64,000 bases of DNA from Eledone cirrhosa (taxonomy: Eukaryota): assembly GCA_964016885.1 (NCBI GenBank), contig OZ024763.1, positions 23,002,001 to 23,066,000 of the forward strand, written 5' to 3'. Below, piece by piece: positions 10,058 to 61,441 of the stretch (the stretch's first letter is position 1; each line of letters opens with the position of its first letter). The notes under the pieces were generated by a model. It had not been told where the DNA came from. It searched no databases and saw nothing but the letters and a program-made list of their open reading frames with translations. The position numbers and the translations under genes were made by a program.

Positions 10058-10244
10058 TAGTTATATATTGTGTTGTTCACTTTATAATTAAATAGCTCTG
10101 TTCTATACATAGAGCACTCTTTTTTCCTTTGTTTTTTTTTTCTTCAGAAATAATTAACATACATATAAAAGCAGAATAAATGGAGAAGGCAATACGTTTA
10201 AAAACAAACTTGACATCTTACACAGTGTTTCATATATATATATA

Positions 10245-10462
10245 TAATGAAGGAAGTGTGGTAAGGAACCAGGTGGACCATAACCCACCAGAGTACTCGA
10301 TACTTCGGGTAGTAGAGTGGGTAATAGGAAAAGAGTCAGAACCCCGACAGCAGAGCTCAAGCCATTTTGACAGCTATTTCTGGATCCAAAGCCTATCAAA
10401 GTCCAGAAATAGCTGTCGAAATGGCTTGAGCTCTGCCGTCGGGGTTCTGACTCTTTTCCTAT
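10245..10462 (-). mobile_element. Penelope-like pLTR fold-back insertion (family A) carrying the 3' half of a hammerhead
   Basis: Inverted arms 10324-10384 / 10402-10462; homologous to 42103-42298 and 58870-59451; flanked by (TA)n. Confidence 0.8.
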
Positions 10463-25310: not shown

Positions 25311-25601
25311 GGCGTTCCTAAAGGAAGTTTGTAAGCATGTATGTAGTTTTATCGAATTTGAAGGGGAGTAGAGAGAGGTAAGCAGATTCTATTAAAGGGG
25401 TAAAGCATCATGTATTTAGTTTTATGGATTATTTCTGTAATTGTGGGTGAGTTTGAGTGAAATAAATAGTCGTTGACCTAAGTTAGACCATTTACAACAT
25501 TCTTACAGACTTTGAGTCGAATCGGTTTGAAATTGTGTAAACATGGAACATGTGCACACACACACACGCAACAACAACAATCTGCCTTTTATAGATAATG
25601 A
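25008..25601. repeat. About 110-bp inverted repeats resembling two facing Helitron 5' ends or MITE TIRs
   Basis: atcattatctataaaaggcagattgttgttg...cgactcaaagtctgt and its reverse complement at 25505-25601. Confidence 0.75.
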
Positions 25602-25676
25602 TATGATACACACACACACACACAACGAGGCATCTCATCTAACCCATGGTAGCGTGGAAAAATGGACATTAAACTG

Positions 25677-28600: not shown

Positions 28601-29445
28601 TTCGATGGAGTTTTTAAAGGATGCAGTGTCTCAACAGCTAACAACTGATGTAGGTAGTTTGTTTCATGGAGGTTTTAAAGGATGCAGTGTATCGACAGCT
28701 AACAACTGATGCAGGTAGTTTGTTTCATGGAGGTTTTAAAGAATGCAGTGTCTCGACAGCAAACAACTGATGCAGGTAGTTTGTTCCATGGATGTTTTAA
28801 AGGATGCAGTGTCTCGACAGCTAACAACTGATGTAGGTAGTTTGTTTCATGGAGGTTTTAAAGGATGCAGTGTCTCGACAGCTAACAACTGATGCAGGTA
28901 GTTTGTTCCATGGAGGTTTTAAAGGATGCAGTGTCTCGACAGCTAACAACTGATGCAGAGAGTTTGTTCCATGGAGGTTTTAAAGGATGCAGTGTCTCGA
29001 CAGCTAACAACTGATGTAGGTAGTTTGTTTCATGGAGGTTTTAAAGGATGCAGTGTCTCGACAGCTAACAACTGATGCAGGTAGTTTGTTTCATGGAGGT
29101 TTTAAAGAATGCAGTGTCTCGACAGCTAACAACTGATGCAGGTAGTTTGTTCCATGGAGGTTTTAAAGGATGCAGTGTCTCGACAGCTAACAACTGATGC
29201 AGGTAGTTTGTTTCATGGAGGTTTTAAAGAATGCAGTGTCTCGACAGCTAACAACTGATGCAGGTAGTTTGTTCCATGGAGGTTTTAAAGGATGCAGTGT
29301 CTCGACAGCTAACAACTGATGTAGGTAGTTTGTTCGATGGAGTTTTTAAAGGATGCAGTGTCTCGACAGCTAATAACTGATGCAGGTAGTTTGTTCCATG
29401 CTTCAGCAACTCTGAGCGTGAAAAAATGTGAGCTGTACTGTTTTA
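25677..29445 (-). mobile_element. CR1-group LINE 3' fragment whose ORF2 end is expanded into a satellite
   Basis: Tail and 3' UTR 25677-25904, array 25905-29400, upstream ORF2 sequence 29401-29445, all collinear with 57630-57925. Confidence 0.93.
25905..29400 (-). repeat. Second 61-bp satellite array (about 57 units)
   Basis: Same unit as 1-6560; private variants tttcatgg and aaagaatg; no 56-bp variant seen. Confidence 0.97.
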
Positions 29446-29772
29446 AGTAAGGCAATTAAGACAGGTAAAGTAGCTGGTCCATCAGGGTTAGTTGCTGAGA
29501 TGCTCAAAGTATCTGGCATGGTGGGTCACATTTTCACTTGTTCCCTCTGATCGATCGACAGGATCCCCAGACCTCATTCGCTTGTCGAGTGGGGTGGACC
29601 TCGTCAAATCGGTCCAAGGAAACAATGTTTCCATTGGTCTTTCAATTGCTGATACTATCTACACTTTAATCACTGGTATTGTAAACCAAATAATACAAAA
29701 TGATGTCATACCTAATGATTGGCGTAGCAGATCATCGTCAACTGTTACAAAGGCAAAGAGATGCTCTAGACA
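29445..29772 (+). mobile_element. Decayed RTE RT fragment interrupted by a ~130-bp hairpin insert (29530-29662)
   Basis: Homologous to KAIK..TGKAAGPS..VAEMLK..GH / IVNQ...DW..SIIVNCYKGKGDALD at 54915-55115. Confidence 0.75.
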
Positions 29773-29774
29773 CC

Positions 29775-30330
29775 TTACAGAGTGGACTGGGTGCTTTTTG
29801 TTATAGTATCAGCACTACCACCTTACAGGGTGTACTGGGTGTATTATATCATGACACCAACACTACCACTTTACAGAGTGTACTGGGTGTATTATATCAT
29901 GATACCAACACTACCACTTTACAGATTGTACTGGGTGTATTATATCATGATACCAATACTACCACTTTACAGATTGTACTGGGTGTATTATATCATGATA
30001 CCAACACTACCACTTTACAGATTGTACTGGGTGTATTATATCATGATACCAATACTACCACTTTACAGATTGTACTGGGTGTATTATATCATGATACCAA
30101 TACTACCACTTTACAGATTGTACTGGGTGTATTATATCATGATACCAACACTACCACTTTACAGATTGTACTGGGTGTATTATATCATGATACCAATACT
30201 ACCACTTTACAGGGTAGATTGGATGCTTTTGAAAATGGTTCAAGGACTATGATCTGACAGGGAGTACTGGGTGCTTTTTATCATGACACCAGCACTAACA
30301 ACTTATGGGGTGTATTGGGTGCATTTAATT
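29775..30330. repeat. 48-bp minisatellite derived from the RTE 3' UTR internal repeat
   Basis: Unit gtactgggtgtattatatcatgataccaacactaccactttacagatt; resembles ccactttacagtgtgggctgggtgcttttt at 41553-41582. Confidence 0.88.
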
Positions 30331-33833: not shown

Positions 33834-33854
33834 GTCCTTCCTCTTTTAACCAAC

Positions 33855-36800
33855 ATGGCTGATATAAGAGTTGGGTGTCTGAATGTACGCGGCCTGGGAC
33901 TATCTTGGAAACAAGGCAAACTTTTAAACGATCTCAAGTCACATAGAATGGATGTAATGGCTATTTGCGAGTCCAGGATCAGCAGCGAGTGCCAACTGGC
34001 GCCCCTCTTCGACGACTTTGAGATCTTCGCATCTCTCTGTCAACCGGGGGGTGGGGGTGGAGTTGTCGTTCTGCTGCGAAAACACCTGGACCCGGAGGGT
34101 CGACTGGTGGTTTTAGACGTCGGCAGTAGTGAAAGTGGAGCCCTTAGACTAATTGCTGTGTACGCCCCTTTTTGGGCAGCGCGGCCGGACTACTTCCAAC
34201 GTCTGGAAACTTTTTTAGGAACGTCCCGCTCCTTGCTTTTAGTGGGGGACTGGAATGGTATCCTGGATGCACGTTGGGACTATGTAGGGGCATGTGCCAA
34301 TAGAGGGGGGTGTAAAAGCCTTAAAAGGTTAATCGGCCGATTTGACCTGGCCAAGAGATATCGACTAGATTTTCCGACTGTACTACTATGGACGTGGACC
34401 AATCGCAGCGGAACATCTAGGTCGTACCTAGATAGGGTCCTAGTTAGAGAGAAGGATAGGGACACATTTAGCTGTCCAAAAATGTTCATGGTTGACTATT
34501 CGGATCACAAGTTAGTGACCTGCATAGCCAACCTTGATAGAACCCATAGACAGGGACCCGGTTACTGGAAGCTGAACTTGTCCTTACCGACAAGCAAAGC
34601 TTACAGTAAACGGATTAACACGTTAGTTAAGCAGTGTTTGACAGGGGCAATTGTCAACAACAGGTGGTGGAGTTCTCTTAAGAGAGCAATTAGAATAGAA
34701 TCGATAGGTTTTAGTCAGGAATTAGCAAGGGATAAGAACAAGACGGAAAGGGAATTAGTAGATAGAGTAGAAGAGGCGATTAGGAGTGGCAATGTAGCCA
34801 GCGTGCTGGCATCAAGAATGGCCTTAGACCAGTTCTTTGATGTGAAGCACGAGGGCTGCGTTGTCAGGAGTAAAATACGTGCTCTGGGTAATGAGGGAGC
34901 CAAAGCTGTTAGCTGGGCCCGAGTGACAGAGGCAAAAAGTGGGAACAAGTCCACGATTCGGTCTTTGAAGGACCAGGATGGGCGTGTGATCCTTGAACCT
35001 GGGCAGATGTGTGCGGCCTTTCAGCGGCACTTTGCACGACTGTTCGAGAGGGGCGGCGCGCTGGGTGAGACTATGGATTTCAATCCATACCTCGACGGTC
35101 TGCCGCGCCTCTCGGACGGGGAGGCGAAGTCCTGCGAAAGGCCGATTTCAGCTGCTGAGATAGGGGCGGCGCTGAGCCAATGCGGCAAACGCAAATCCCC
35201 GGGTCTCGATGGTCTACCATACGAGCTATATGTAGCAATGCCGGACTTGTTCTCCGATATCCTCGAAGCGGTCTACTGCAACTGGCAGCAGAACGGGAGA
35301 ATTCCCAGTTCTGTGACCAAGGGCGTAGTTACGCTGGTGAGGAAGGATGAGAACAAGGGGGATGACATAAGTAACTTCAGGCCCATAACTCTGCTAAATA
35401 CAGAGTTAAAGATTTTGGCCAAGGTGTTAGCGAAGAGGTTGGCGCTTGTCGTCGGAAACCTGGTGGGAGAAGCGCAGACATGTGCAATCCCATCCAGGTC
35501 CATTCACGACAATCTCCACCTTATGCGATACATCATAGAGAGGGTAGGGAATGAACCCGGCTTTGGTGGGGCCCTGATCAACTTGGATCAATCTAAAGCT
35601 TTCGATAGGGTTGACCATCGTTACCTGGATGCGGAGCTCGCGGCGGCAGGCTTCGGACCCGTTTTCAGGGGTTGGATTGCTGCGATGCACAGCAGCAACG
35701 TCTGCTCAAGGGTCAAGGTGAACGGCCACCTCTCGGAGCCGTTCCAAATCATGCGATCCATCCGACAGGGATGCCCTCTCTCCTCCCTTCTGTATGTGCT
35801 GGCTCTTGAGCCACTACTGCGGAAGTTGGAGCGGTTGCAGGGCATCCCTTTGGAACCGGGATTGCAGAAAGCGGCGTCGGCCTATGCCGATGACGTGACA
35901 GTAATGGTGTCGAAAACCTCGCAAATCGGTGAGATCGGCACCTTACTGGAGGAATATGAAAGGTTTACAGGAGCCAAGCTGAACCGGGACAAGTCCGTCG
36001 GTTTGCAACTCGGAACATGGAGGCAAACCGATGCCCTCCAACGACGTCGTCGGACGCTGGACGGAGGGCCCGGTGAAGCTGCTTGGGGTTTGGTTCGGAC
36101 CAGACCTCCAGGTGGAGAAAAACTGGAACGAGGTAACGGCCAGGGTGTTTGCACTCACCCAGAAGTGGGCCCAGTGCAACCTATCCCTGAAAGGTCGAGC
36201 GGAGGTGGCGAATACTTATATAGCATCCGTCATCTACTACCGCTTGACCGTCGTGCCTTGCCCAGTGAAAAGACTCGCCAAAATGGAGTGCGCGCTATTC
36301 CAATTTCTTTGGAACAAGCGGACCCCTTTGGTGAGGAGATCCATCTGCTGTCAACACCCTTCGAAAGGAGAGCTGGGGATACCGTGGCTACAGATGCGTA
36401 AACACGCATTAAGGCTACGGCACCTCCAGGTATTCCTCACCGGTCAACCGGTGTGGGCCCCGTTTGTGAGGCGAGCCTTTCCCAGACTCGTCTCGCTCAC
36501 CGAGCTGCAATCCTGGGTCAAGCAAAGACCGAGAAAAGTGGGCGACTGGCACATTGAATGTGCCCAGGCGCTCACGGCTCTCTGGAAAGTGGACCCGGCA
36601 ATCAGTGGAGACTCCACCTTGACATTCTATAGAGGGTTGGTACGCAGCAGGTGCGACGATGCTCTCGGAGAAGCTCTAGGCATGGAGGAAGATGAACTGG
36701 CCAGTCTGTTCGGTAGGACGTTTGGCCCTGGACCAATGGACAACTTCCAAAAGTCCCTGGCTTGGCAGTGCTACCGAGGGGCTCTACCCATTCGAGACAA

Positions 36801-37543: not shown

Positions 37544-40500
37544 CTGAGGCAATCTCATACCATCTGGCCTCTGTTAAAACTGGGCGTGAAAATCGGATTA
37601 CCTTCCGAACATACCCAGGCCTACCACCCCATGTACGTCCAAAGCTCCGTTCTGCAGCTTCCTTGAATCGGAACTCAGCACAACATGAAAGTTTTAGTCT
37701 GCGTGATGATGGGCAGATCTGGAGGTTTGTTAAGGCTGGTGAAACATGGAAGAGAGATACCAGCTGGTCTGAGCGTGCTCTACCCACAATAACTGGCAAT
37801 GAAAAAACTGCAACAACTCTGGGAAACTAAACCAGAACAACTCTGGGAAACTAAACCAGAACAACCTGCCACCCTCTACACACCATCATAAACTGCAAGC
37901 AGGGTACAAATTGTTGTCCTTAAATGCTCGCAGTTTATGCAACGAGATACATCTGTTTGACTCCTATGTCAGAAGCATCGACCCTGACTTCATCACAGTC
38001 ACGGAAACATGGGCACATTCCTTACTCTGTGATGGGGTTTTCAGCATTACTGGGTACAACCTTTTCCGCAAGGACCGCATTAATTGCCGAGGTGGTGGTG
38101 TGATGGTCTACGTTCGTTCAAACTTTTCGGTAATTCCTTGCGTTGATTTGAACGAATCACAGTAAGAAGTTTTTTTCTGTGACATACGTATGACCATGTC
38201 AACACTTCTGCTTGGTGTTGTTTATCGCCCCCCAAACTACCATCCGGACACACAGCTTTGCGATATCCTCAGAGTTGCTGCCAAGAAAACAGTCACTTAT
38301 GTGTTTATTGCAGGTGACTTCAATCATCCTGAGATCGATTGGGAAACCTTTCGTTGGCCACAAGGTGCAAACGATTTCCTTGAACTAGTGCTGGACTCAA
38401 ACTGGTCACAAGTAGTCACCTCTCCAACAAGAGGTGACAACACTTTGGACCTGATCTTCACCACTACTCCTGAAGTGATTATCAGTTGTACTACTGAGGA
38501 ACCTCTAGGCGACTCTGATCATGCTATGATCATTGCCAATCTGGCTCTTGTGGGCAGCAACAAAAACCAGAGCCATCTCCAATCTGCTTGCTTTGATTGG
38601 AAGAAAGCAGATTGGAACTTGTACTGCACTGAGCTACAGCGCCCAAACTGGCATGAGATGTATAACTCTGGAGATGTGAACACTATACTCCAGAGCATCC
38701 TGGACTCAATATGGATAGCGTGTGCAGCATCGGTGTAACGTAAGCAGAAAAAAAACCACCCCAAAAGTGCAATTTGGGAAACTTCAGCGGTCCGACTTGC
38801 CAGGAAGGAACGTCGGAACGCTGAACGGGAATATAAACTGCATAAATCAGATGCCAACAGAAAAAAGCGGAATAAATCTTCTAACCATCTCAAGCAAGTG
38901 ACAAAGAAGGCAGTGCCTGAATTTGAACAGTGCATCGCAACCAATCCTGACAGTAAGGTGTTCTGGAAATATGTTCATTCAAAGCAGAGACCTCACTCTC
39001 CAGTTGGTCCTCTTTGCAATCCCCACACAAGCCAGATCACTGACGATCCCAAAGAATGCGCAGAACTCATTGCTGAGTGCTATGCAAGTATTTTTACTGT
39101 TGAAAACCAGAATGTACCATCTCCACCATCTCTTACATCAAATTCCATAAAAACTATGGAATTTACATCTGCAATGTTGCGACGTCACCTTAAGAATAAG
39201 CGCAACTATGCCTCCCCTGGTCTTGATGGTGTGACATACCTGCTTCTCAAACGTGGCGGGTATTTCCTTTTGCGTCAGCTTTCTTTCTTCTTTCAATACT
39301 GTCTCAACAATGGTGCTACTCCGGAGCAGTGGAAAACTGCCAGTGTCATTCCCCTGTTCAAAAAGGGCAACCGCATGTCATCTGTCAACTATCGTCCAGT
39401 CAATCTTACTAGCTGTATTGCCAAACTGATGGAATCCTGTGTCAGAGAAACACTTTGGAACTTCTGGAGCTCTCACAGCCTCATCCGGCCCTCACAGTTT
39501 GGATTTATCCCTAACTCCAGCTGCTGTGATCAGCTTATCGAGTTCCTTGAAGACATCACCCGGATCACTGACAGCGGCTCATGGGTGGATGTTGTTTACC
39601 TTGACTTTGCTAAGGCTTTTAATTCTGTGCCACACAAAAGACTTATGGCAAAACTCTCTGCAATGGGTGTGAGGGATGATCTTTTCGACTGGTTGAAATC
39701 CTTCATTCTCAGCCGAAAAGAGGTAGTCACGGTTCTAGGACAGCATTCTTCACCATATGAGATGTCATCTGGTGTACCACAGGGATCTGTTCTTGGTCCC
39801 CTTTTGTTTGTGGCATATATTAATGACATAGATGCCAACTTACAGAATGCCACGGTACTGAAATATGCAGATGACATCAAGCTGTACCTTGAGATCAAAA
39901 GGACTGATCCTGAAATCTACAACTCTTTCCTACAATCAGACCTGGACACAATGCAGCAATGGATCACAGACTGGCAACTGAAGCTGGCTGTGGACAAGTG
40001 TACCACCATGCATTTTGGGAGTAAAAATCCAGCGTCCACATACTCCCTCCACAACACTGATATCAAGAAGTCCTCTTGTGAACGTGATCTGGGCATTACT
40101 GTCAGCAGCGATTTGCGTTGGACAAAGCATGTCTCTAAGATTGTCAAGAGGGCCGAGGGTGTCTTGGCATCACTCAGCAAGACCTTTGTTAGCCGCTCTC
40201 CAGCCATCTATTTAAAACTGTATACAGCTATGGTACGACCACACTTGGAATTCGCATCATCAGTCTGGAACCCCTATCTTGCTCAGAACATTGACCTCCT
40301 GGAAACTGTTCAGAGATGTGCAACCAAGCGCATACCCTCCATCAGACACCTACCATACTCTGAACGCCATGCTTCCCTGGGCATGGATTCATTGAAGCTC
40401 CGACGTCTGGCAATGAACTTGGTAAATACCCACAAAGTTATTAACCATCTCGCCAATTGCAACCCTGAGCACCTTTTTGATCTCCATGTGTCTAACACGT

Positions 40501-40840
40501 GGACATGCCTACAAAATCAGAAAACAGCACAGCTCCCATGACTTTCGTAAACATTTTTTCACGCTCAGAGTTGCTGAAGCATGGAACAAACTACCTGCGT
40601 CAGTTGTTAGCTGCCGAGACACTGCATCCTTTAAGACACTCATGCTTCCCGAAATACGCCAAAACTACACCTAATGTACTCCTTCCATACACATGCACAC
40701 ATGAGTGTATCATGACTCATGCACTGTTCATTTTCCTGACGTTTGTACATTACCCTATGTACTATACATACACTTTTTGATGAGTTGTAGTGCACCTGAG
40801 CACTGTACACAATATTTCATTATTATTATTATTATTATTA
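37544..40840 (+). mobile_element. CR1-group LINE (complete decayed ORF2, 3' UTR, (TAT)n tail)
   Basis: LNARSL, VTETW, YRPP, GDFN, LDL, SDH, YRPVNLTS, DFAKAF, GVPQGSVLGP, YADD, WNKLP; stops at about 38165 and 38738, frameshift near 40500. Confidence 0.95.
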
Positions 40841-42090: not shown

Positions 42091-42102
42091 TTATATATAT
42101 AT

Positions 42103-42298
42103 AACGAAGGAGTTGTGGTAAGGAACCAGATGGACCATAACGCACCAGAGTACTCAATACTTAGGCTAGTAGAGTGGGTAATAGGTAAAAGTAAGCCCTG
42201 ACGGCAGAGCTCAAGCCGTTTCGACGGCTATTTCAGTCCAGAAATAGCCATCGAAATGGCTTGAGCTCTGCCGTCAGGGTCTTACTTTTTCCTATTAC
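42103..42298 (-). mobile_element. Penelope-like pLTR fold-back insertion (family A)
   Basis: Arms 42178-42234 / 42241-42298; matches 10245-10462. Confidence 0.8.
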
Positions 42299-42591: not shown

Positions 42592-45515
42592 ACACACACA
42601 CACACGATAGCAACTAACAGCGCTGCGATCGAATGTGGCTTTTTAGCCCAGCCAATGATCTAAAATGTCTTGCACAGAGTCGGTAACCAAAACATTCACT
42701 GGGAATAGTCGGCTGTGGTTGGAGTTTGTGTACTTTTGCATGTCGCTTGAGCCCTCCTGCTGATTTACATTCTCTACCACATGTTTGGCAAGCATGATGA
42801 GTAGCATCTCCAACAGCAGCCTGGTAGTCAACCACTGGTCTTACTTTATGACTGCGAAGATGACTTTCGAGTCCAGCTTTGCTTAGGCAGAGTCTCGCAC
42901 AGACGCTGCATGTCAGCATCATAGGAGGACCCTCGCCGTCTGGAAGTGCAACAGCAATGCTCTTCCTCACATCCCGCTTTACTTTCTCGTATGCGATTCG
43001 AGATGCCTCAAAGGCAACTTTTCCCTCATATACAGTCTTTCTCCATTTATTACGATCAGCAGCAATATTTTCCCATGTATCAGCAGAGATGTTAGCGTCT
43101 TTCAAAGAGGCTTTCAAGGAATCCTTATACCTCTTTTTTGGTTTATGTGGCGGTCGTTTTCCTTTAACCAACTCTCCATAAAAGAGTTGTTTTGGTATTC
43201 TAGAATCCTTCATCCTGGCAAGGTGACCACTCCAACGGAGTCGTTGCTTAAGCACAAGAGCTTCTATACTGTCACACATAGAGCTTTCCAAAATCTCGAC
43301 ATCACTGATGTGGTCCCTCCAGTGAACGCCATGGATCCATCTGAGACACATCTGATGGAAACACTCCAATTGCTTAAGGTGGTGTCGATATGTGACCCAG
43401 GTCTCGCAGGCATAAAGAAGACAAGAGAGCACACATGCCTTGTATACCTTTACCATTGTCCTCCTGCATATGTCTCGCCGACCCCAGAGTTGCCTTTCTA
43501 GCTTTCCGAAAGCATCACTTGCTTTCCTAATCCTAAGTGAGATTTCACTGTCAAGGTTGCTGTATCGATTGACACTGCTTCCCAGGTAGACAAACTGATC
43601 AACCACTCTAAGTCGTTTACCATACACATAGATATTTGGTTCAGTGTTCTGCTTACCAGGGGCAGGATGGTACATGACGACGGTTTTCTTGAGACTGACA
43701 GTCAATCCTAGAGCATTCAAATGCAAGCGTCAGAAAATGCATTCAAAATGTGCGCTACAAGATCGCAATCATCTGCATACAAGAGGTCTCTTATGATTGA
43801 TGTAAATACTTTTGTCTTTGCAGCAAAGCGCCTGATGTTAAATATGCTGCCTGAGGTTCGATATCGGATGTAAACACCATGCTCGCAATTCCTGAATGCA
43901 ATACAGAAAACCATTGCAAAGTATATGGCAAACAGGGTCGGTGCTGGAATATCCCTCTGTTTCACTCCATTTTTTACTGAGATAGGCTCCGACATGTTAC
44001 CTCTGACATTAACCCAAGCCTTCATGTCATCATGGAAAGACCTAACTAAAGCAAGGAACTTATCAGGGCAACCAAGTTTCTGGAGAACCTTCCATAATGC
44101 ATCTCTGTTAACAGTATCGAAAGCTTTTGTCAGATCGACAAAAACCTGATACAGATCCAAGCCTTGTTCCATGCACTTCTCCTGGAGCTGTCTAGCTGAG
44201 AAGATCATATCAGTAGTGCCGCGTCCAGCACGAAAACCAGATTGACTTTCAAGAAGAACACAATCTGCAATGTGTGTCAGCAGACGGTCCAGAAGCACCC
44301 TACATAAAACTTTCCCTACGACAGAAAGCAATGATATACCTCTGTAGTTCCCACAATCATTCCTGTTACCCTTTCCCTTGTACAAGACCACCATTACTTC
44401 ATCTCTCCAGTCCTCAGGTACGGATTCATTAGCCCATATCCTGCCAAACAAAGAGTGAAGATGTTGCAGGAGTCTCTCACCACCATATTGTAGGAGCTCA
44501 GCATGTATGCCATCCATACCTGGAGATCTTCCACTGTTCAGCTTCGAAATAGCCACTGCAACCTCCACAAGCGTCGGAGGTTCTGCGAGAGCTACTTTCA
44601 CAGGACTTTCTGGAATGAGATTGAGGAAATCTTCACTGACGACAGAGGGCTGATTCAAAAGATCATCAAAGTGCTCTCGCCACCTTCGTAGAATTCCTTG
44701 TGAGTCACAAAGAACTTCTTTGCCATCCTTGCTGCGAAGCGGTGTCACCAGAGAAGAAGACGGTCCATAAACCTCACGCAAGAGACTGTATAACAGCTTT
44801 GTGTTATTGGAATCTGACGCAGTTTGTATCTCACCAGCCTTCTCACTCCACCACTGATCCTTCATTTGAGAAAGACTCCGCCTAACACGTGATTTTACAT
44901 CCTTGAGTTCCTCATGCAACATATTCCTCTCCTGTGGTTTTGCCGTCAAGTAGCATGACGAGCACGCCTCTTATCAGCCAACAAGTCTTCTATATGTACA
45001 TCATTCTCATTAAACCAGTCCTGATGTTTTCTCTGCACCAATCCCAGAACACGCCTGCCTACATCATAAACAGACTTTTTAAGGGTCGGCCAATCCTCAC
45101 CAAGATCTGCAGCCTGCATCTCTTCTTCCAATGTCCTCTTCACATTTTTATCCTTAAGACAAGCAGCATTCAATCTTTTGGGCAGGGCAACACCAGGAGC
45201 CCGGATTTTACGTTTAGTGATTAGTTTCACTTTTGCGCGTACCAGGCGGTGGTCCGTCCAGCACTCAGCTCCACGAAGAGCACGAACACACTGCACATCC
45301 TGTCTGTCACGCATCCTGACTAGGACGTAGTCCAAAAGATGCCATTCCTTAGATGCAGGATGCATCCATGTGGTCTTGAATTTGTTCTTTTGTTGGAACA
45401 TGGTGTTGGTAACACACAGATCCAGCTCCTCACACATCTGCAGCAGGAGCATACCATTGTTGTTACACTTTCCCACCCCATGCCTTCCGATTACATTCCA
45501 TGTGTTAAAATCCCA
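42592..45515 (-). mobile_element. RTE-clade LINE (second lineage), 5'-truncated, two frameshifts, three C-terminal C2H2 fingers, (GT)n tail
   Basis: ORFs 44946-45476 (LDY, TDH), 43717-44949 (YRGISLLS, DLTKAFD, YADD), 42614-43726 (RLRWSGH; CxxC-x12-HxxxH repeats). Confidence 0.93.
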
Positions 45516-45531
45516 ATATTTTCATTTATAT

Positions 45532-47421
45532 ATGCTGAAGGCATCTGGGTCTGTAGGTCACACTATAACCACACGTATCGTTAACCAGGTAATACTAGAA
45601 GGGGCCATACCAAAAGATTGGTGCAGTAGCATCATTGTCAACTGCTACAAAGGTAAAGGCGATGCACTAGATAGAGGAAACTATAGAGGTATAAAGTTGA
45701 TGGACCAGGTCATGAAAGTAACAGAAAGAGTTATAGCACAGCTGATTAGGGACCGGGTGAATATAGACGAGATGCAATTTGGGTTTGTACCAGGGAGAGG
45801 CACCACTGATGCCCTCTTCCTTGTGAGGCAATTACAGGAAAAGTACCTAGCTAAAAGTAAGCCACTCTACTTGGCATTTGTCAACCTTGAGAAAGCCTTT
45901 GACAGAGTTCCACGTGCGGTAATCTGGTGGGCTATAAGAAAACTAGGAGTAGATGAATGGCTTGTGAAAGCGGTACAAGCCATGTATAGGGGAGCAGTCA
46001 GCAAAGTTAGGATTAGCAATGAGTATAGCGAGGAATTTAGCGTACAGGTTGGGGTCCACCAGGGCTCTGTTCTTAGCCCTCTCCTGTTCATCATAGTCCT
46101 GCAGGCAATAACGGAGGAGTTTAAGACCGGATGCCCATGGGAACTCCTGTATGCTGATGACCTCGCACTCATAGCTGAATCTATGGTAGAACTAGAGAAT
46201 AAATTCCAAACCTGGAAGCAGGGACTAGAGAGAAAGGGCCTCAAAGTCAACATGACAAAGACTAAGGTCCTTGTAAGTAGACGAGAAAACAGAACCCAGA
46301 TCCCCTCAGGGAAATGGCCTTGCTCAGTATGTAGGAAAGGTGTAGGTAGGAACTCCATTCTCTGCCCCAAATGCAAACAATGGGTACACAAGAGATGTAG
46401 CGGGATCTCAGGAAGCTTAATTAAGAATGTAGGATTCACATGCAGCAGCTGTGCTGAAACAGCAAGCAAACAGCCACAGGAAACAAGTACCACCAATCTC
46501 TGGGAGGGCCCTGTAGAAACAGTAGACAGCTTCTGCTACCTAGGTGACCGAATTAGCAACAGAGGTGGGTGCTCAGAAAGTACAATAACTAGGGTAAGAA
46601 CGGGATGGAAGAAGTTTAGGGAACTACTACCACTGCTAGCTGCAAAAGGCTTCTCCCTCAGAATGAAAGGCAGACTGTATGATGCGTGTATCCGAACAGC
46701 GATGTTGCATGGTAGTGAGACCTGGGCGCTGAAGGTGGAAGACTTACGTAGATTAGAGAGAAACGAAGCCTGCATGCTCCGATGGATGTGTAACAGTAAT
46801 ATACGTGAACGACAAAGCATAAAGGAATTGAGAGAGAGACTGAGCATAAGAGGAATCAAATGCTGCGTGCAGGAGAGGCGGTTACGCTGGTATGGACATG
46901 TGATGCGTATGAAGGATGACAGCTGCATAAAAAGGTGCAGAGCACTAGACGTCGATGGAAACCGTGGAGTGGGGAGACCCAAGATGACTTGGGATGAGGT
47001 GATAAAAGCCGACCTTACCCAACTACACCTCTCAAAGACAATGACACACGACCGTGACTTCTGGCGTCACGCAGTAATACAGGGTACCCGACCTCCCATG
47101 GGTACATGCTGAAGCATATAAACAATATGCCCCCACTCCCCCCCACCGCAAGTTGGTCGTGGAGGTGCCACGGCAAAAAAGCACCCAGCCCACACTGTAA
47201 AGTGGACGTGTAGGCGCCACGAAAAAGCACCCAGCACTCACTGTAAATGAGGTTGGTGTTAGGAAGGGCATCCAGCTGTAGAAATCAAGCCAGATCAGTT
47301 CCTGTATGAGCAAGGCATGGTCAGCCGACCAGACACTGCCCACAACAGGACAACCCGTCTAACCCATGCTAGCGTGGAAGAACGGACGTAAAACGGTGAT
47401 GATGATGATGATGATGATGAT
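45532..47421 (+). mobile_element. 5'-truncated RTE LINE (PHD-containing lineage)
   Basis: NYRGIKL, GVHQGSVLSP, YADD, C4HC3 finger, (GAT)n tail. The first ~55 aa of ORF 45370 are antisense read-through of the neighbouring element. Confidence 0.93.
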
Positions 47422-49407: not shown

Positions 49408-52400
49408 ATCATCATCATCATCATCATCATCGTTTAACGTCCATATTCCACACTCGCATGGGTTTGGACAGGAGTTTTCCCACTTGAGGCAAGAGTGGTT
49501 GTCTTGCTCGCATAGGACTGTCTGGAAGGTTTTCTACAGCTGGATGCCCTTCTTAACACCAACCACATTTACAGTGTGGAACTGGGAGGTTTTTACCGTG
49601 TTACCTACACAGCCACATTACAGCGTGGACTGTGTGTTTTTTTTTGTCGTGACACCTACACGACCTCGTTTGTTTCGGGCTGGATGTTGTGGTACCAACA
49701 TAACTTTACATTGAAAAGGGTGGTGTGGATGGAGTGGGGGTAGTGGGACGGGGGTGTATTTTGTTTGAGGTGCCTACTGCTGTAGTAGGTTTTACTTTGC
49801 ACTTAGGTAAGGCAGGTCTTCTCTATTACTGTGTAGCGCCAAAGGTCTCGGTCCAGTGATATTGTCTTGGAGAGGTGTAAGTGTGTGAGGTCGGAATTTA
49901 TCAAGTCGTCCCAGGTTTTTCTGGGTCTGCCTACTCCGTGGCTACCGTCTATTTTTATTGCCCTGCACTTTTTTATACAGCTGTCGTCTTTCATGCGCAT
50001 CACGTGACCATACCAACATAGCCTTCTCTCGAGTAAACAACATCTGATCCCTCTTATTTCTAATTTTTCCCTTAGTTCGTTTATGCTTTGACGTTCACGT
50101 ATATTACTATTACACATCCAGCGGAGCATGCAAGCTTCGTTCCTCTCCAGTCTGCGTATATCCTCTGCACACAAAGCCCAAGTCTCACTGCCATGCAACA
50201 TTGCTGTTTGTATGCAGGCATCATACAGCCTGCCTTTCATTTTTAGGGAGAACCCTCTAGCGGCTAATAGTGGTATAAGCTCTCTGAACTTTTCCCATCC
50301 AGTTCTGACTCTAGCTACTGTACTTTCAGAGCACCCTCCCCCACTGCTGATTTTGTCACCCAGGTAACGGAAGCTGTCCACTATTTCTATAGAACCATCT
50401 GTGCAATGGAATGAGCTAGTATTCTGTGGGGACTTGTTGCTACTTATTGCACCAGAACACCAGCCACATATAAAATCTATGTTCTTAGTTAGCTTACCTG
50501 TGATCCCACTACATCTTTTATGCACCCATACTTTGCATTTGGGACATAAAATGGAGTTTCTACCTACTCCTTTCCAACACACTGAGCATGGCCATTTCCC
50601 GGATGGGACCGGTGCCCTATTTTCCTTCCTACAAACTAGAACTTTAGTCTTAGACAGGTTAATTTTAAGGCCTTTTGATTCTAGGCCATGCTTCCATGTT
50701 TGGAATTTCTTCTCTAGTTCGGCCATTGATTCAGCTATGAGCGTTAGATCATCTGCATATAGGAGTTCCCACGTGCAGCCGGTCTTGAACTCCACTGTTA
50801 TAGCCTGAAGGGCGATAATAAATAGTAGGGGGCTAAGAACGGAGCCCTGATGAACACCAACTTTTACACTAAACTCTTCACTATATTCGTTGTTAATTCT
50901 AACCTTGCTGACTGTTTCTTTATACATGGCTTGTATAGCTCTCACAAGCCATTCATCAACACCTAGTTTTCTAAGAGCCCACCAGATAATGGAACGGGGG
51001 ACTCTTTCGAAGGCTTTCTCCAAGTTGACAAAAGCTAAGTATAGGGGTTTACTTTTAGCTAGGTACTTCTCCTGTAGTTGTCGTACAATGAAAAGAGCGT
51101 CTGTGGTACTTTTGCCTGACACAAACCCGAACTGCATTTCATCTAGATCAATTCTCTCTCTGATTAGTTGCGCTATTACTTTTTTTGTGACCTTCATGAC
51201 CTGGTCGATTAATTTAATGCCTCTATAGTTACTCCTATCTAGGGCATCTCCTTTACCCTTGTAGCAGTTAATGATGATGCTGCTACGCCAGTCCTTCGGA
51301 ACAACCCCATTCTGTATGACTTGGTTTACTATCCGGGTGACCATGGTGTGTCCCACCGTTCCAGAAGCTTTCAGCATTTCAGCAACTATTTCCGAAGGCC
51401 CAGCCGCCTTACCCGTCTTCATATCTTTGATTGCCTTACTTATTATACTACCTTCGACTAACACTGCTGGTCCTTCTATTGGGTCGATGTGGGGGAGACT
51501 GTCTTTCTCCCATTTATTCTCCTCATTTAGTAGCCTTTCGTAGTGACACTTCCAAGCTACCTTCTTATCAGTGTCAGTGATGGCAAGTACACCATCATCA
51601 TTAAGTACACACTTCTCCCCGACAATATCACGGTTTTCCTTGACACATTGCCTAGCAATCCTGAACACCTCGCGTTGTAGAACATGCTTGAACTTTCTTT
51701 CCTCAGCTTCCCTTCTTGCTAAGTACACTTGTCTCCTAGCTTCCCTCCTGGCCACTTGGTAGTCTTCTCTACTTCCCCCATCCCGCCATACTTTCCAAGC
51801 CTGCTTTTTGGCCTTAATTGACTCCTCCACCTTACTGTTCCACCACCATATTACTCTCGTTCTGCCTATAGGCCTGCTCCAGTCACAGACTTCGTCTGCC
51901 GCCATCAGCAGGTTTGCTTTCAGGAATTCCCACTGTTCCTCTATATTGTACGACTCTAAATGCTCTTCCTTACTGTCAAAAGCATCAAGTAATATGCTTT
52001 TAAATTTATTTCTGGCTGTGGGGTCCTTTAGCTTCCATATTTTTCTCCTGAGGATAGTCCTCTTCTGCTGTCTAGTACGTCTTGTCCTGACTATGAGGTC
52101 GCTAATTATCAGTCTATGTTGGGAGGTGCATTCTTCATGGGGGAGAGAATTAGTGTTTACAACAGACCCTCTGTCACGTCTTCTGGTAAGGATATAATCT
52201 ACCTGGCTGGTATGTTCCCCTGATCTGTAGGTGATCAAGTGATTGTCTCGTTTTTTGAAGTTAGTGTTACAGATAGTTAGGTTATTTGCGTCACAGAATT
52301 CCAGGATTCTGGAGCCTTCCTCATTTCTAGTACCAAACCCATAGCCTCCGTGGATTCCATCATAGCCGTCACAATGTTGTCCAACGTGACCATTTAGGTC

Positions 52401-53000
52401 GCCAGCAATAATTATATAGTCACTGTCAGTTATTTGGGAGGTAGTGAGCATCAGTGTCTCATAGAATCTGTCTTTTATAGCGCCAGGCAGTCCGGATTGG
52501 GGCGAGTACGCAGATATTACTGTCACAGTAGTTCTATTTAGAACAAGTCTTATTTTAATTATTCTGTCATTCACTCTATTTACGTCTATTATCTTATCCA
52601 CCCATTTTTCTGCTAACATGATTCCTACCCCACCCAGCCCATTGTCATTTCCCACCCAGAAAAGCTTATAGCATCGTTTTTTACCCTCAATGAATCTAGC
52701 AGACCCGCCCCTCCACCTGGTCTCTTGGATACAGCAAACATCAACCTCCTTACGTTCAAGCATTTCTACCTCGTTAGAGCAGCCTTTTAAGGTGCCTACA
52801 TTCATGGTACCAATTCTGAAGTTTTGGAGGGAGGGGTGAGGGGGATGGGGTTGGGGTTATGTTGGCCATCCGCGGCCGCAACAAAGAGGAGGGGGCCTTG
52901 CCCTTTCGTCCGGCAGCATGAGGTGAATTTGTCGTTATCTTTGGCATTGTCTTCGAGTGTCCAGATTCTTCAGACTCTCCAGAAATTCCTTAGTCCATCC
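49408..53000 (-). mobile_element. Near full-length RTE-clade LINE (5' boundary uncertain)
   Basis: Single APE-RT ORF, 3' UTR, (GAT)n tail. Confidence 0.93.
49803..52805 (-). CDS. RTE ORF (APE endonuclease, RT, PHD finger), open for 1000 aa but with RT motif-A Asp-to-Asn
   Basis: NVGTL, IQETRW, SAYSPQ, GDLNGH, VDYIL, SQH; FVNLEKAFER; YADD; C4HC3. Confidence 0.9.
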   Translation of the reverse strand: MNVGTLKGCSNEVEMLERKEVDVCCIQETRWRGGSARFIEGKKRCYKLFWVGNDNGLGGVGIMLAEKWVDKIIDVNRVNDRIIKIRLVLNRTTVTVISAYSPQSGLPGAIKDRFYETLMLTTSQITDSDYIIIAGDLNGHVGQHCDGYDGIHGGYGFGTRNEEGSRILEFCDANNLTICNTNFKKRDNHLITYRSGEHTSQVDYILTRRRDRGSVVNTNSLPHEECTSQHRLIISDLIVRTRRTRQQKRTILRRKIWKLKDPTARNKFKSILLDAFDSKEEHLESYNIEEQWEFLKANLLMAADEVCDWSRPIGRTRVIWWWNSKVEESIKAKKQAWKVWRDGGSREDYQVARREARRQVYLARREAEERKFKHVLQREVFRIARQCVKENRDIVGEKCVLNDDGVLAITDTDKKVAWKCHYERLLNEENKWEKDSLPHIDPIEGPAVLVEGSIISKAIKDMKTGKAAGPSEIVAEMLKASGTVGHTMVTRIVNQVIQNGVVPKDWRSSIIINCYKGKGDALDRSNYRGIKLIDQVMKVTKKVIAQLIRERIDLDEMQFGFVSGKSTTDALFIVRQLQEKYLAKSKPLYLAFVNLEKAFERVPRSIIWWALRKLGVDEWLVRAIQAMYKETVSKVRINNEYSEEFSVKVGVHQGSVLSPLLFIIALQAITVEFKTGCTWELLYADDLTLIAESMAELEKKFQTWKHGLESKGLKINLSKTKVLVCRKENRAPVPSGKWPCSVCWKGVGRNSILCPKCKVWVHKRCSGITGKLTKNIDFICGWCSGAISSNKSPQNTSSFHCTDGSIEIVDSFRYLGDKISSGGGCSESTVARVRTGWEKFRELIPLLAARGFSLKMKGRLYDACIQTAMLHGSETWALCAEDIRRLERNEACMLRWMCNSNIRERQSINELREKLEIRGIRCCLLERRLCWYGHVMRMKDDSCIKKCRAIKIDGSHGVGRPRKTWDDLINSDLTHLHLSKTISLDRDLWRYTVIEKTCLT

Positions 53001-54597: not shown

Positions 54598-56962
54598 GGA
54601 AGCTAGGAGAGAAGTGTACTTAGCAAGAAGGGAAGCTGAGGAAAGTTCAAGCATGTTCTACAACGCGATGACCAAAAACGTGAGGTGTTCAGGATTGCTA
54701 GGCAATGCGTCAAGGAAAACCGTGATATTGTCGGGGAGAAGTGTGTACTTAACGATGATGGCATACTTGCCATCACCGACACTGATAAGAAGGTAGCTTG
54801 GAAGTGTCACTATGAAAGGCTACTAAATGAGGAGAATAAATGGGAGAAAGACAGTCTCCCCCATATCGACCCAATAGAGGGACCAGCAGTGTTAGTCGAG
54901 GGGAGTATAATAAGTAAGGCAATCAAGGATATGAAGACGGGTAAGGCGGCTGGGCCTTCAGAAATAGTTGCTGAGATGCTGAAGGCATCTGGCACGGTGG
55001 GACACACCATGGTCACCCGCATAGTTAACCAAGTCGTACAGAATGGGGTTGTTCCGAAGGACTGGCAAAGCAGCATCATCGTTAACTGTTATAAGGGTAA
55101 AGGAGACGCCCTAGATAGGAGTAACTATAGAGGCATTAAATTAATCGACCAGGTCATGAAGGTCACGGAAAAAGTAATAGCGCAACTAATCAGAGAGAGA
55201 ATTGACCTAGATGAAATGCAGTTCGGGTTTGTGTCAGGCAAAAGCACCACAGACGCTCTTTTCATAGTACGACAACTACAGGAGAAGTACCTAGCTAAAG
55301 GTAAACCCCTCTACTTAGCTTTTGTCGACTTGGAGAAAGCCTTCGACAGAGTCCCCCGCTCCATTATCTGGTGGGCTCTTAGAAAACTAGGCGTTGACGA
55401 ATGGCTTGTGAGGGCTATACAAGCCATGTATAAAGAAACAGTCAGCAAGGTTAGAATTAACAACAAATATAGTGAAGAGTTTAGCGTAAAAGTTGGCATC
55501 CATCAGGGCTCTGTTCTCAGCCCCCTACTATTTATTATTGCCCTTCAGGCTATAACAGAGGAGTTCAAGACAGGCTGCCCATGGGAACTCTTATACGCAG
55601 ACGACCTGACACTCATAGCAGAATCAATGGCCGAGCTAGAGAAGAAATTCCAAACATGGAAGCACGGCCTAGAGTCAAAAGGACTTAAAATTAACCTGGC
55701 TAAGACCAAAGTTCTAGTTTGTAGGAAAGAAAACAAGGCGGCGGTCCCTTCTGGGAAATGGTCGTGCTCGGTGTGTAGGAAAGGCGTAGGTAGAAACTCC
55801 ATTTTATGTCCTAAATGCAAAGTATGGGTGCATAAAAGATGTAGTGGGATCACAGGTAAGCTAACTAAGAACATAGATTTTACATGTGGCCGGTGTTCTG
55901 GTGCAATAAGTAGCAGCAAGTGCCCACAAAATACTAGCTCTTTCAATTGCGCAGAGGGTTCTATAGAAATAGTGGACAGCTTCCGTTACCTGGGCGATAA
56001 AATCAGCAGTGGGGGAGGGTGCTCTGAAAGTACTGGTTGGAAAAAGTTCAGAGAGCTTATACCACTATTAGCTGCTAAAGGGTTCTCCCTAAAAATGAAA
56101 GGCAGGTTGTACGATGCCTGCATACGAACAGCAATGTTGCATGGCAGTGAGACCTGGGCATTGTGTGCAGAGGATATACGCAGACTAGAGAGGAACGAAG
56201 CTTGCATGCTCCGCTGGATGTGTAACAGTAATATACGTGAACGGCAAAGCAGAAACGAACTAAGGAAAAAATTAGAGATAAGAGGGATCAGATGTTGTTT
56301 ACTCGAGAGAAGGCTATGTTGGTATGGACACGTGATGCGCATGGAAGTCGATAGTTGTATAACAAAGTGCAGGGCAATAAAGATAGACGGTAGTCACAGA
56401 ATAGGCAGACCTAGAAAAACCTGGGACGAGCTGATAAACTCCGACATCACACACTTACACCTCTCCAAGACAATGTCACTGGACCGAGACCTTTGGCGGT
56501 ACTCAGTAACAGAGAAGACCCGCCTTACCTAAATATATATAGTAAAACCTACTCCAGCCAGTAGGCATCTCTAACAAAATACACCCCGTCCCACCACCAC
56601 CACCCCCACCCCATCCACACCACCCCGTTCTATGTAAAGTTATGTTGGTGCCGTGTCATCCAGGCCGAAACAAATGAGATCGTGTAGGCCAAAACAAATG
56701 AGATCGTGTAGGTGTCACGACAAAAAAACACACAGTCCACGCTGTAATGTGGCCGTGTAGGCAACACGGTAAAAACCTCCCAGACCCACACTGTAAATGT
56801 GGTTGGTGTTAGGAAGGGCATCCAACTGTAGAAAACCTGCCAGACAGTCCTATGCGAGCAAGACAATCACTCTTGCCTCAAGTGGGACTACCCCCGTCCA
56901 AACCCATGCAAGCGTGGAACACGGACGTTAAACGTTGATGATGATGATGATGATGATGATGA
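54598..56962 (+). mobile_element. 5'-truncated RTE LINE (PHD lineage), RT motifs intact
   Basis: ORF 54685-56532 with FVDLEKAFDRV, YADD and PHD; 3' UTR and (GAT)n tail. Confidence 0.94.
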
Positions 56963-58467: not shown

Positions 58468-58785
58468 CATATATATATATATATATTTATAATTGGTGTT
58501 GGATGCTTAAAGCATCCGTATGTGGTAGGCCGTATGAGCACTCAATGCTCTCATAGATCAGAGTATGATATCACAGAAAATCAGCTTTGTAGAATCGAGA
58601 CGTATCAAGGGACCGCGCGATTTCAGAGTCAGGTTTGATCACCACATCGATCGTGCCTCGAGCTGGTTGCCCGAGAAACAATTGTTATATGTCCAATAAA
58701 TTCCTTTCGTCGCAACACTGATTCTCTTTTTTCTGTGATATATATATATCTATATACACACACACACATATATATATATGTATCT

Positions 58786-58872
<87 letters not shown>

Positions 58873-58884
58873 GGAACCAGTAAG

Positions 58885-58978
58885 ACCCCGACAGCTGAGC
58901 TCAAGCCGTTTCGACGGCTAATTCTGGACTAAATGAAAATTTATCCTGGTATTTAAATAGCCGATCTTCTCAAGGGGT
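58885..58978 (-). ncRNA. Type I hammerhead, U3-A8 variant (left arm)
   Basis: Reverse complement of 59265-59358. Confidence 0.78.
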
Positions 58979-59264
58979 AATTCCATATATGGTCAAAGTG
59001 ATTGTCAAAAATCAGTAGTAATTCTGTGGTTGCAAATTAGTAGGGGAGATGGTGGCTAAACCTGCCAGTAGGAGAAAGAGGGGAGGGGGTGGAGTAGACC
59101 CAATCAAGCGTTGGTAGTGCCAGCTACAGCTGGGCATGATTGGGTCTACTCCACCCCCTCCCCTCTTTCTCCTACTGGCAGGTTTAGCCACCATCTCCCC
59201 TACTAATTTGCAACCACAGAATTACTACTGATTTTTGACAATCACTTTGACCATATATGGAATT

Positions 59265-59358
59265 ACCCCTTGAGAAGATCGGCTATTTAAATACCAGGAT
59301 AAATTTTCATTTAGTCCAGAATTAGCCGTCGAAACGGCTTGAGCTCAGCTGTCGGGGT
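59265..59358 (+). ncRNA. Type I hammerhead, U3-A8 variant (right arm)
   Basis: Stem I acccc/ggggt; core TTGAGAA 59270-59276; stem II ga(t)cggcta/tagccgtc; GAAA 59331-59334; stem III acggc/gctgt with palindromic tgagctca; GUC 59351-59353. Confidence 0.78.
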
Positions 59359-59449
59359 CTTACTGGTTCCTATTACCCACTCTACTACCTCAAGTATTGA
59401 GTACTTTGGTGCGTTATGGTCCACCTGGTTCCTTACCACATTTCCTTCG

Positions 59450-59492
<43 letters not shown>

Positions 59493-60134: not shown

Positions 60135-61441
60135 TCATAATCTATAAAGCTCAGTGTGTGGTCATGCTCCTTTCTTATAGAAATCTACGATATAGAATTT
60201 CTTCAATTGAAATTTACAATTCAGTATTCGAAATAGCTTCGATTGCGTCTTGGCACATCTAATTTTTTCAATTTCACCCAGAATTACGCAAAAAATAGAT
60301 AAAACTCAATATTTTACGATTTTTCTGTCATTTAAACTGCTAAACTCTTTCCACTACCATTCAAAATCTATACAACTTCATACTTTCTGCTACTTTCTCT
60401 TTTATACTTCAAACTTACTGATTTATTTCCAAACGCATACAAACACACACTCACATAAATTGATCAAAAAAAATTTAAAGCAATTAAACAACGTGCGGGA
60501 TTTATAACCACAAATACACGACTATTCATTAACTTCCTTTCTTACACTCACTTCAAATGATAAAAAACATTTAAAGCAATTAAATAACGTGCGTGATTGC
60601 CAAAGAGAGAGAGAGAAGAGAGTGAGAGGGAGTGAGAGAGAGAATGTTTATTATTACATAAAGTACCAGTAATGTACTGGGTAATTGCTGGCCTTGTGCC
60701 AAAAAAGTAGAAACAATTATTACATTTCATACGTAACGACAATTATTCAAAAGCAACAGATACATTTATTCAACAAGCGATAAATCTTTTTTAAAACCTC
60801 TTTTCCAAACGCATACAAACACACACTCACTTCAACAACAACAACAATCTGCCTTTTATAGATAATGATAAACAATAATATCCTCTATGAGGTCACTAAA
60901 CCTGCTAGAAACAGCAGCTAACTCTCCCCCATATCACACCCCTCAATACTGTCTTAAATTTAGAAAACATATCTTCTATGTGGTCACTAAACCTGCTAGA
61001 AACAGCAGCTAACTCTCCCCCATATCACACCACTCCCAACTGTCTTAAATTTAGAAAACACATATCCTCTATGAGGTCACTAAACCTGCTAGAAACAACA
61101 GCTAACTCTCCCTCATATCACAACCCTTCCTACTGTCTTAAATTTAGAAAACACACAGACAACCATGCAGAACAACTCCATCGCAGCTCTGTTGTTCGGC
61201 GGGCATCGTCTACGCGCGTGTTGCGCAAGTACTGTGAAACAATAAATTTCAACACTTTTTTGCACCAAGATAATATCCATAGGCGAAACTACAATTGTCA
61301 CTGCTGGCGCAGCTCCTGCTTCCAGGTCTGCAATTCATTCACCCAGTGCCTGGCAGACAAAAAAGTGGTGCCATAAAATGGGTGGTGCAACCTAACTTTG
61401 GTAACCTAATGACCCCGAGCAACGCCGGGCTTTAATGCTAG
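60135..61441 (+). mobile_element. Non-autonomous Helitron
   Basis: A|TC start (tcataatctataaag); subterminal GC hairpin cccg(a)gc-aac-gccggg about 8 nt before CTAG|T; inserted in (TA)n; no TSD. 5' end less certain. Confidence 0.75.

Follow-up and report, generated by a model that had tools for sequence, protein, structure and literature searches.

A probable young head-to-head insertion of a Hydra-clade Penelope-like element underlies a perfect 237-bp inverted repeat in Eledone cirrhosa

What is a perfect inverted repeat, with an outward-facing variant hammerhead ribozyme in each arm, doing in the genome of Eledone cirrhosa? The repeat lies in a stretch of 64,000 nucleotides (contig OZ024763.1 of assembly GCA_964016885.1, positions 23,002,001 to 23,066,000, forward strand), hereafter the window. 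A first-pass annotation, made from these letters, had seen in it a special structure that might act as a self-silencing switch or as a defined source of dsRNA. We reach a plainer reading: with a probability of about 0.85, the 582-bp stub is a young insertion of a Hydra-clade Penelope-like element (PLE) into (TA)n, in which two hammerhead-bearing 3' ends stand head to head. The locus is one ordinary stub among many of a very abundant element, and its main value lies at the level of the family.

The arms are exactly complementary over 237 bp on either side of a 30-nt spacer (Table 1), and pairing extends to 240 nt (58870-59109 with 59134-59373) with one mismatch. Folded as a whole, the 582-nt hairpin has a predicted energy of -496.7 kcal/mol (z = -57 against shuffles), the small hairpin of the spacer included. 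The left arm and spacer (58870-59139) match, at all 270 nt, a unit of a tandem array at another place in the genome (L069), and the right arm and tail match the same unit from 59137 on; the sole difference is base 59136, which comes from the end of the left copy. Other copies of the family traverse the spacer without a break in the left-arm orientation. The spacer is thus native sequence continuous with the left arm, and the two copies, each truncated at its 5' end, abut at a microhomology of 3 nt. The first description of two outward-facing U3-A8 hammerheads on a perfect repeat is upheld, each arm having its type I hammerhead, and so is the view of a very recent event, given the identity of both copies to the array. 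Of what was said of the spacer, the length and the small hairpin stand, and the designed loop gives way to ordinary element sequence. The 24-mer across the hairpin junction occurs once in the 3.0-Gb genome, which rules out a Foldback- or MITE-like element, where the hairpin would be amplified as a unit.

Table 1. Features of the insertion and its target, in window coordinates
Feature	Position	Strand	Remarks
Left (TA)n-rich target microsatellite	58738..58869		
Left arm, outer end			family site A (...GGTTCCTAT), adjoining (TA)n; mirror of 59373
Left arm	58870..59106	-	inverted, 5'-truncated copy of the element 3' end (pseudo-LTR)
Predicted type I hammerhead, left arm	58885..58978	-	core 58973-58967; predicted cut after 58890; mirror via 237-bp identity
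Spacer	59107..59136	-	native element sequence by which the left-arm copy extends further 5'; holds small hairpin
Junction microhomology	59134..59139		3 nt exact (59137-59139), 5/6 over 59134-59139
Right arm	59137..59373	+	5'-truncated pseudo-LTR copy up to site A
Predicted type I hammerhead, right arm	59265..59358	+	predicted cut after C59353
78-nt tail	59374..59451	+	reaches family site B (...TTCGTTAT)
Right (TA)n target microsatellite	59452..59489		target-site duplication not readable within it

The element behind the stub is readily found. Compared with its own 3.0-Gb genome, the arm plus tail yields 228 candidate regions, and the best 40 of the 228, which were scored, are 97-100% identical; a 30-mer of the young subfamily has 2,092 exact matches and the U3-A8 core in its context has 3,072. 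Long copies extend upstream into an open reading frame (ORF) for a reverse transcriptase (RT) with a C-terminal endonuclease. Tandem arrays repeat a unit of 3,528-3,537 bp (~3.5 kb) with this frame at 716 aa, and there the 78-nt tail leads into the leader of the next ORF, whose ATG follows ~92 nt later. The window copy itself has no ORF. The 716-aa frame holds the RT motifs FIQFD and YRDDG and the endonuclease motif VIY..AYIG, and has 2,215 homologues. A Pfam search of the family ORF gave no RT or GIY-YIG match, one homologue has a single weak Pfam GIY-YIG match (E 0.006), and a PDB sequence search with the ORF gave nothing useful. Full-length arrays lie at C2 51.27-51.29 Mb, C1 377.71 Mb and C1 91.47-91.49 Mb (a five-unit tandem). 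The units of one array (L067, 3190-5541, minus strand) have an uninterrupted 784-codon frame; in L069 the unit frame is open for 567 codons and stops close to a C-run.

Craig et al. 2021 (PMC8557442) mark the Hydra clade by RW[K/R], DKT, a CxCX5C linker, CxxC, CxH, a C-terminal endonuclease and the lack of CCHH. The family protein has RWR, DKT, a CNC-PDRSI-C linker, CNLC and CKH, one Cys between VIY and YIG, and no CCHH; of 12 aligned proteins, 11 keep these motifs and the last is truncated at its C-terminus. Family copies show the clade's preference for (TA)n, and the wider features of EN+ PLEs are present as well: a single RT and GIY-YIG-type ORF, tandem or partial-tandem pseudo-LTRs (pLTRs) with a predicted hammerhead fold, an inverted 5'-truncated copy and a one-sided tail. 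The unit exceeds the clade's usual size of generally <3 kb, which is a tendency rather than a definition. On its motifs, its homologues and the one weak GIY-YIG match to a homologue, the family appears to be a Hydra-clade PLE. The Neptune clade was dropped after the Hydra motif check of the protein. Retrozymes have been described as PLE derivatives (bioRxiv 10.64898/2026.07.22.740005); a non-LTR retrozyme, made of short non-coding tandem monomers, is ruled out here, the repeating unit being a 3.5-kb coding element.

How usual is the head-to-head form? The first 100 of the 2,092 young-subfamily matches, all on contig C1, fall into 62 clusters, and 28 of these hold an outward-facing pair. Copies of the family end at one of two fixed places, site A and, 78 nt further 3', site B. 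We classified the ends of 73 chains in 60 of the 62 clusters, the two left out being too long. Both ends were classified in 40 chains, and 39 of them pair one A with one B (binomial p 4e-11), as the window insertion does; the exception is A+A (L129), and the other 33 chains have one or no classifiable end. An apparent B+B case (L036) is among six long loci. In older subfamilies, where 20 loci were chosen as close pairs, all 17 that were fully classified are A+B. Over both samples the rule holds in 56 of 57 classified insertions, drawn from 80 regions of one contig. Outward-facing pairs, with arms from ~40 nt to >3 kb, are the usual insertion form of the family, and the window repeat thereby loses the special standing first given to it.

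The two arms of an insertion also carry the same template alleles. Across 31 pairs they share subfamily alleles in 114 of 125 cases (91%, against 18% when permuted, with 0 of 1000 permutations as high), a figure to which arm-to-arm gene conversion could add, and they diverge by 0.9% within and 2.5% between insertions. Perfect arms are found in 6 of 20 insertions with at least 200 nt compared and in 9 of 29 overall, in a sample biased to the young. Overlaps of at least 3 nt mark 12 of 23 insert-free junctions, against 20.5% of 400 simulated ones (p 0.0008), and 9 of 32 junctions have inserted bases instead. The window holds two further, older mini insertions of the same superfamily (10244-10462 and 42101-42298; 84-89% identical), also head to head, in TA-rich sites with the B end left and the A end right, both truncated within the hammerhead. 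Sites A and B (59364-59373 and 59427-59451) end in TAT, matching the TA target. Both are preceded by TGGTTCCT, a possible recognition motif, and the tail is conserved across subfamilies.

We propose a model where the RT-endonuclease of the element would cut both strands of (TA)n, after which the two target ends would prime at different places, one at site A and its partner at site B, with either a single RNA or RNA from a single source locus as template. Each cDNA would stop early (at ~270 and ~315 nt in the window copy), and the two would then join at the 3-nt microhomology. The hammerhead would belong to the tandem precursor RNA of the element; as both cDNAs span its cut site, the template would have been uncut, or religated, there. 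Such twin priming from both cut target ends is likely, to judge from the genomic products, and would make the head-to-head pair a routine by-product of insertion; the sharing of template alleles between arms fits priming at two fixed start sites. As a term, 'twin priming' did not occur in the four Penelope papers listed, in a coverage of the literature that is partial. Biochemistry of the anole element PAc (Frangieh et al. 2024, PMC11167929) offers a precedent: in vitro, both target strands are cut and extended at an AT-rich target, two RT start sites bound the tail, the RT-endonuclease is a predicted dimer, and ribozyme cleavage is dispensable. Its two strands are alike in their start site, which does not account for the coupling of one A with one B.

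Arkhipova et al. 2013 (PMC3846280) favour another route for the palindromic junctions of rotifer Penelopes. In such self-priming a single cDNA, or a copy made on an antisense template, would fold over at a short inverted repeat within it and serve as its own template, which would equally give both arms the same template alleles. The window junction does coincide with an imperfect inverted 6-mer inside the element, which flanks a small hairpin, and junctions at several other loci (L114, L116) are near-palindromic. The loop-holding arm of the window copy starts at A, however, and copying back from it cannot yield the 78-nt tail. Of the 32 two-piece junctions, 19 (the A+A locus included) have the A-ended arm reaching further toward 5', as it does in the window copy, and fold-back of one cDNA cannot give such copies; where the B arm is the longer, the exact stop at A is left unexplained. 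We therefore think self-priming unlikely, and hold to twin priming.

The next explanation on offer, a selected regulatory device, turns on what the ribozyme can do. In the right arm, stem I (59265-69 with 59354-58) leads into the core UUGAGAA (U3-U-G-A-G-A8-A, 59270-59276); stem II has 8 bp and a 37-nt loop, GAAA stands at 59331-34, and stem III has 6 bp and a palindromic loop. Every pair of the helices is standard, the Watson-Crick 3-8 pair included, and the cut site is of the UH type. Taken alone, the arm has the hammerhead as its MFE fold, at an energy no better than that of shuffles (z = -0.35): 68 of 200 shuffled sequences do equally well. Predicted helix probabilities are 0.7-0.9 in 59255-59375, ~0.45 in 59137-59451 and <0.1 once the spacer is added (59107-59451). 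By this modelling, the predicted fold of the arms is a genuine type I hammerhead. That standard patterns would miss the variant core, as the first-pass annotation had said, agrees with an Rfam scan of 54-64 kb of the window (E<=1), which returned sub-threshold hairpin-type families and no hammerhead family. A strict type I motif scan of the window did not recover the ribozyme either, because stem II is bulged. The U3-A8 core is indeed known from nature, in active-type cores (Perreault et al. 2011, PMC3088659) and in the minimal hammerheads of the Cercyon PLEs of Schistosoma mansoni (Cervera and de la Pena 2014, PMC4209133).

Two further features of the ribozyme may be recorded. The stem III region (59334-59353) is self-complementary, with a predicted dimer at -26.5 against a monomer at -5.0 kcal/mol, as in dimeric PLE hammerheads. 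In loop II (59284-59316), TATTTAAA ~29 nt before TTAGTC resembles a TATA/initiator pair, which would start an RNA inside the ribozyme; the TATA-like part differs among subfamilies.

The arms are laid out as first claimed, one ribozyme behind its own antisense in a transcript of either strand, and read-through would form a perfect 237-bp duplex. It is tempting to see here a self-silencing switch, with ribozyme and duplex in competition, or a defined source of dsRNA, since small RNAs from inverted Penelope copies are reported in rotifers (PMC3846280). No such competition is predicted. A hammerhead forced upon the full transcript reaches -347.8 kcal/mol, ~149 kcal/mol worse than the duplex fold, its helix probabilities in that transcript are 0.0, and its 5' strand is predicted to be paired already before the 3' half emerges. 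Read-through RNA would hold a dead ribozyme within the duplex. The junction, moreover, is unique, and the arms of its many siblings have other lengths; a copy identical to a young, source-like array lets no selective retention be read. Most of the longer ORFs that were scanned in the window are of LINE type; 9 of 11 have RT, PHD or zinc-finger matches, the proteins being those of LINEs or other repeats, and no host gene emerged among them. A selected device is thus very unlikely. The window copy is likely inert by these models, with dsRNA a possible by-product if the locus is read through; more broadly, wherever read-through happens, long dsRNA would be readily supplied by young inverted insertions with perfect arms. 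A library or assembly fold-back chimera is the least credible account: the arms are perfectly identical, TA runs break reads and four read runs gave no independent record across the junction and none of an empty site, but the palindrome halts exactly at site A, leaving out flanks that differ left from right, and the A+B form recurs in nearly all of the classified insertions, many with 1-3% arm divergence.

The core itself has a history that the first reading, a simple double change from C3-G8 to U3-A8, does not capture, as the visible ancestor in the genome is C3·A8. Beside the U3-A8 matches, the same context occurs genome-wide with C3·A8 in 1,961 cases, with C3-G8 in 13 and with U3·G8 in 12. 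The C3·A8 matches (core CUGAGAA, 1,961 pLTRs) belong to older subfamilies and have conserved stems. In a tree of 116 of the 142 collected copies, which leaves out short copies and is rooted at its midpoint only, the U3 copies fall into a single group (100/99) within a C3·A8 grade, and those with C3-G8 are dispersed among old C3·A8 ones. Divergence within groups is 6.3%, 3.4% and 2.7% for C3 and 0.7% and 0.6% for U3; over five subfamilies, 4 of 50 columns vary in core and stems against 115 of 255 upstream. Judged from these copies, U3-A8 arose as a later second step, after C3·A8. Three metagenome contigs, distant relatives, carry one identical hammerhead with the canonical core CUGAGGA. The order C3-G8, then C3·A8, then U3-A8 is likely on such sequence comparisons, its first step lying outside the range shown by the genome.

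We considered whether the 13 C3-G8 matches could be a canonical sister lineage that would prove covariation, and rejected this. One of the 10 examined is unrelated, the five copies on the tree need four changes among old C3·A8 copies, and the ratio of 13 to 1,961 resembles that of the U3·G8 mutants, 12 to 3,072. A looser canonical pattern likewise gave 13 matches only, mostly in the same places.

It may be, though we would put it somewhat short of even odds, that the family records a natural break and repair of a catalytic pair, and that an asymmetric RT dimer primes the two target ends at separate sites of a single template, to which the strict pairing of one A with one B also points. Several successive subfamilies (~2,000 surviving pLTR matches) would then have spread with a C3·A8 mismatch in a conserved hammerhead, until, in the lineage active today, a single C3U change brought back Watson-Crick pairing between 3 and 8. 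If so, either the C3·A8 form still cuts in vivo, assisted by protein or damped on purpose, or the fold has been kept for another job, such as binding the RT. That a C·A mismatch at 3-8 would impair cleavage is suggested by C3G and G8C data (PMC11167929) and by general knowledge. C3U is possibly a neutral change at that site rather than a selected repair, and the older C3·A8 core also allows a second register, without N7. Beyond PMC4209133, we found no published report of a C3·A8 stage, of a CUGAGAA core or of G8A/C3U data, in a coverage that leaves subscription journals mostly outside.

Much of what the insertion displays is already published for Penelope elements, including cores of the U3-A8 type, hammerhead pairs on opposite strands and tails at one end only. 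As in the Hydra clade (PMC8557442), there is a single RT and EN ORF with the same motifs, a 3' type I hammerhead, a (TA)n target and an inverted truncated copy, the last described for Penelope-13_HM. Unlike the published elements, mostly <3 kb, the unit here is 3.5 kb with a ~1.3-kb 3' region; the tail is 78 nt rather than the 30-40 nt typical of PLEs, and the hammerhead differs in its 37-nt loop II and 6-bp stem III. The Hydra hammerheads of File S2, found with a canonical descriptor, are all CUGAnGA, whereas the core here is U3-A8 or C3·A8, and the family ribozyme differs from that listed for Hydra-1_Obim. Cercyon (PMC4209133) shares the U3-A8 core in the pLTR, the palindromic loop III and paired hammerheads on opposite strands, 100-700 bp from each other; unlike in Cercyon, a monomer fold is predicted here, stem III being of sufficient length, and the core has a C3·A8 stage in its history. 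Inverted 5'-truncated copies and one-sided tails are on record for PLEs (PMC8557442, PMC3846280), and the insertions of Arkhipova et al. resemble ours in the head-to-head inverted pLTR with a tail at one end only. The tail is called optional in the available text of PMC3846280; here one A and one B are counted in 56 of 57 insertions, with template alleles shared between arms. The PAc system is alike in its two RT start sites, the extension of both strands and the AT-rich target.

What the family adds is a pair of test beds. The near-strict A+B rule and the single-template alleles bear on how tandem and inverted Penelope insertions, and the tail, arise; natural C3·A8 and U3-A8 alleles in almost identical context bear on whether a pLTR hammerhead must cut. 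Both the A+B rule and the C3·A8-to-U3-A8 series can be put to direct test.

Other repeats were noted in the window. LINE RT ORFs lie at 33834-36401, 38739-40541, 43717-44970, 45331-47112, 49803-52856 and 54640-56532, and in three of them the ORF also encodes a PHD finger, located past the start of the RT core. Constant GC of ~0.42 with a GC skew of ~+0.27 over 1-6000 and 24000-30000 suggests long tandem arrays, and a 92-nt tandem repeat in three copies, 93% identical, occupies 60878-61153.
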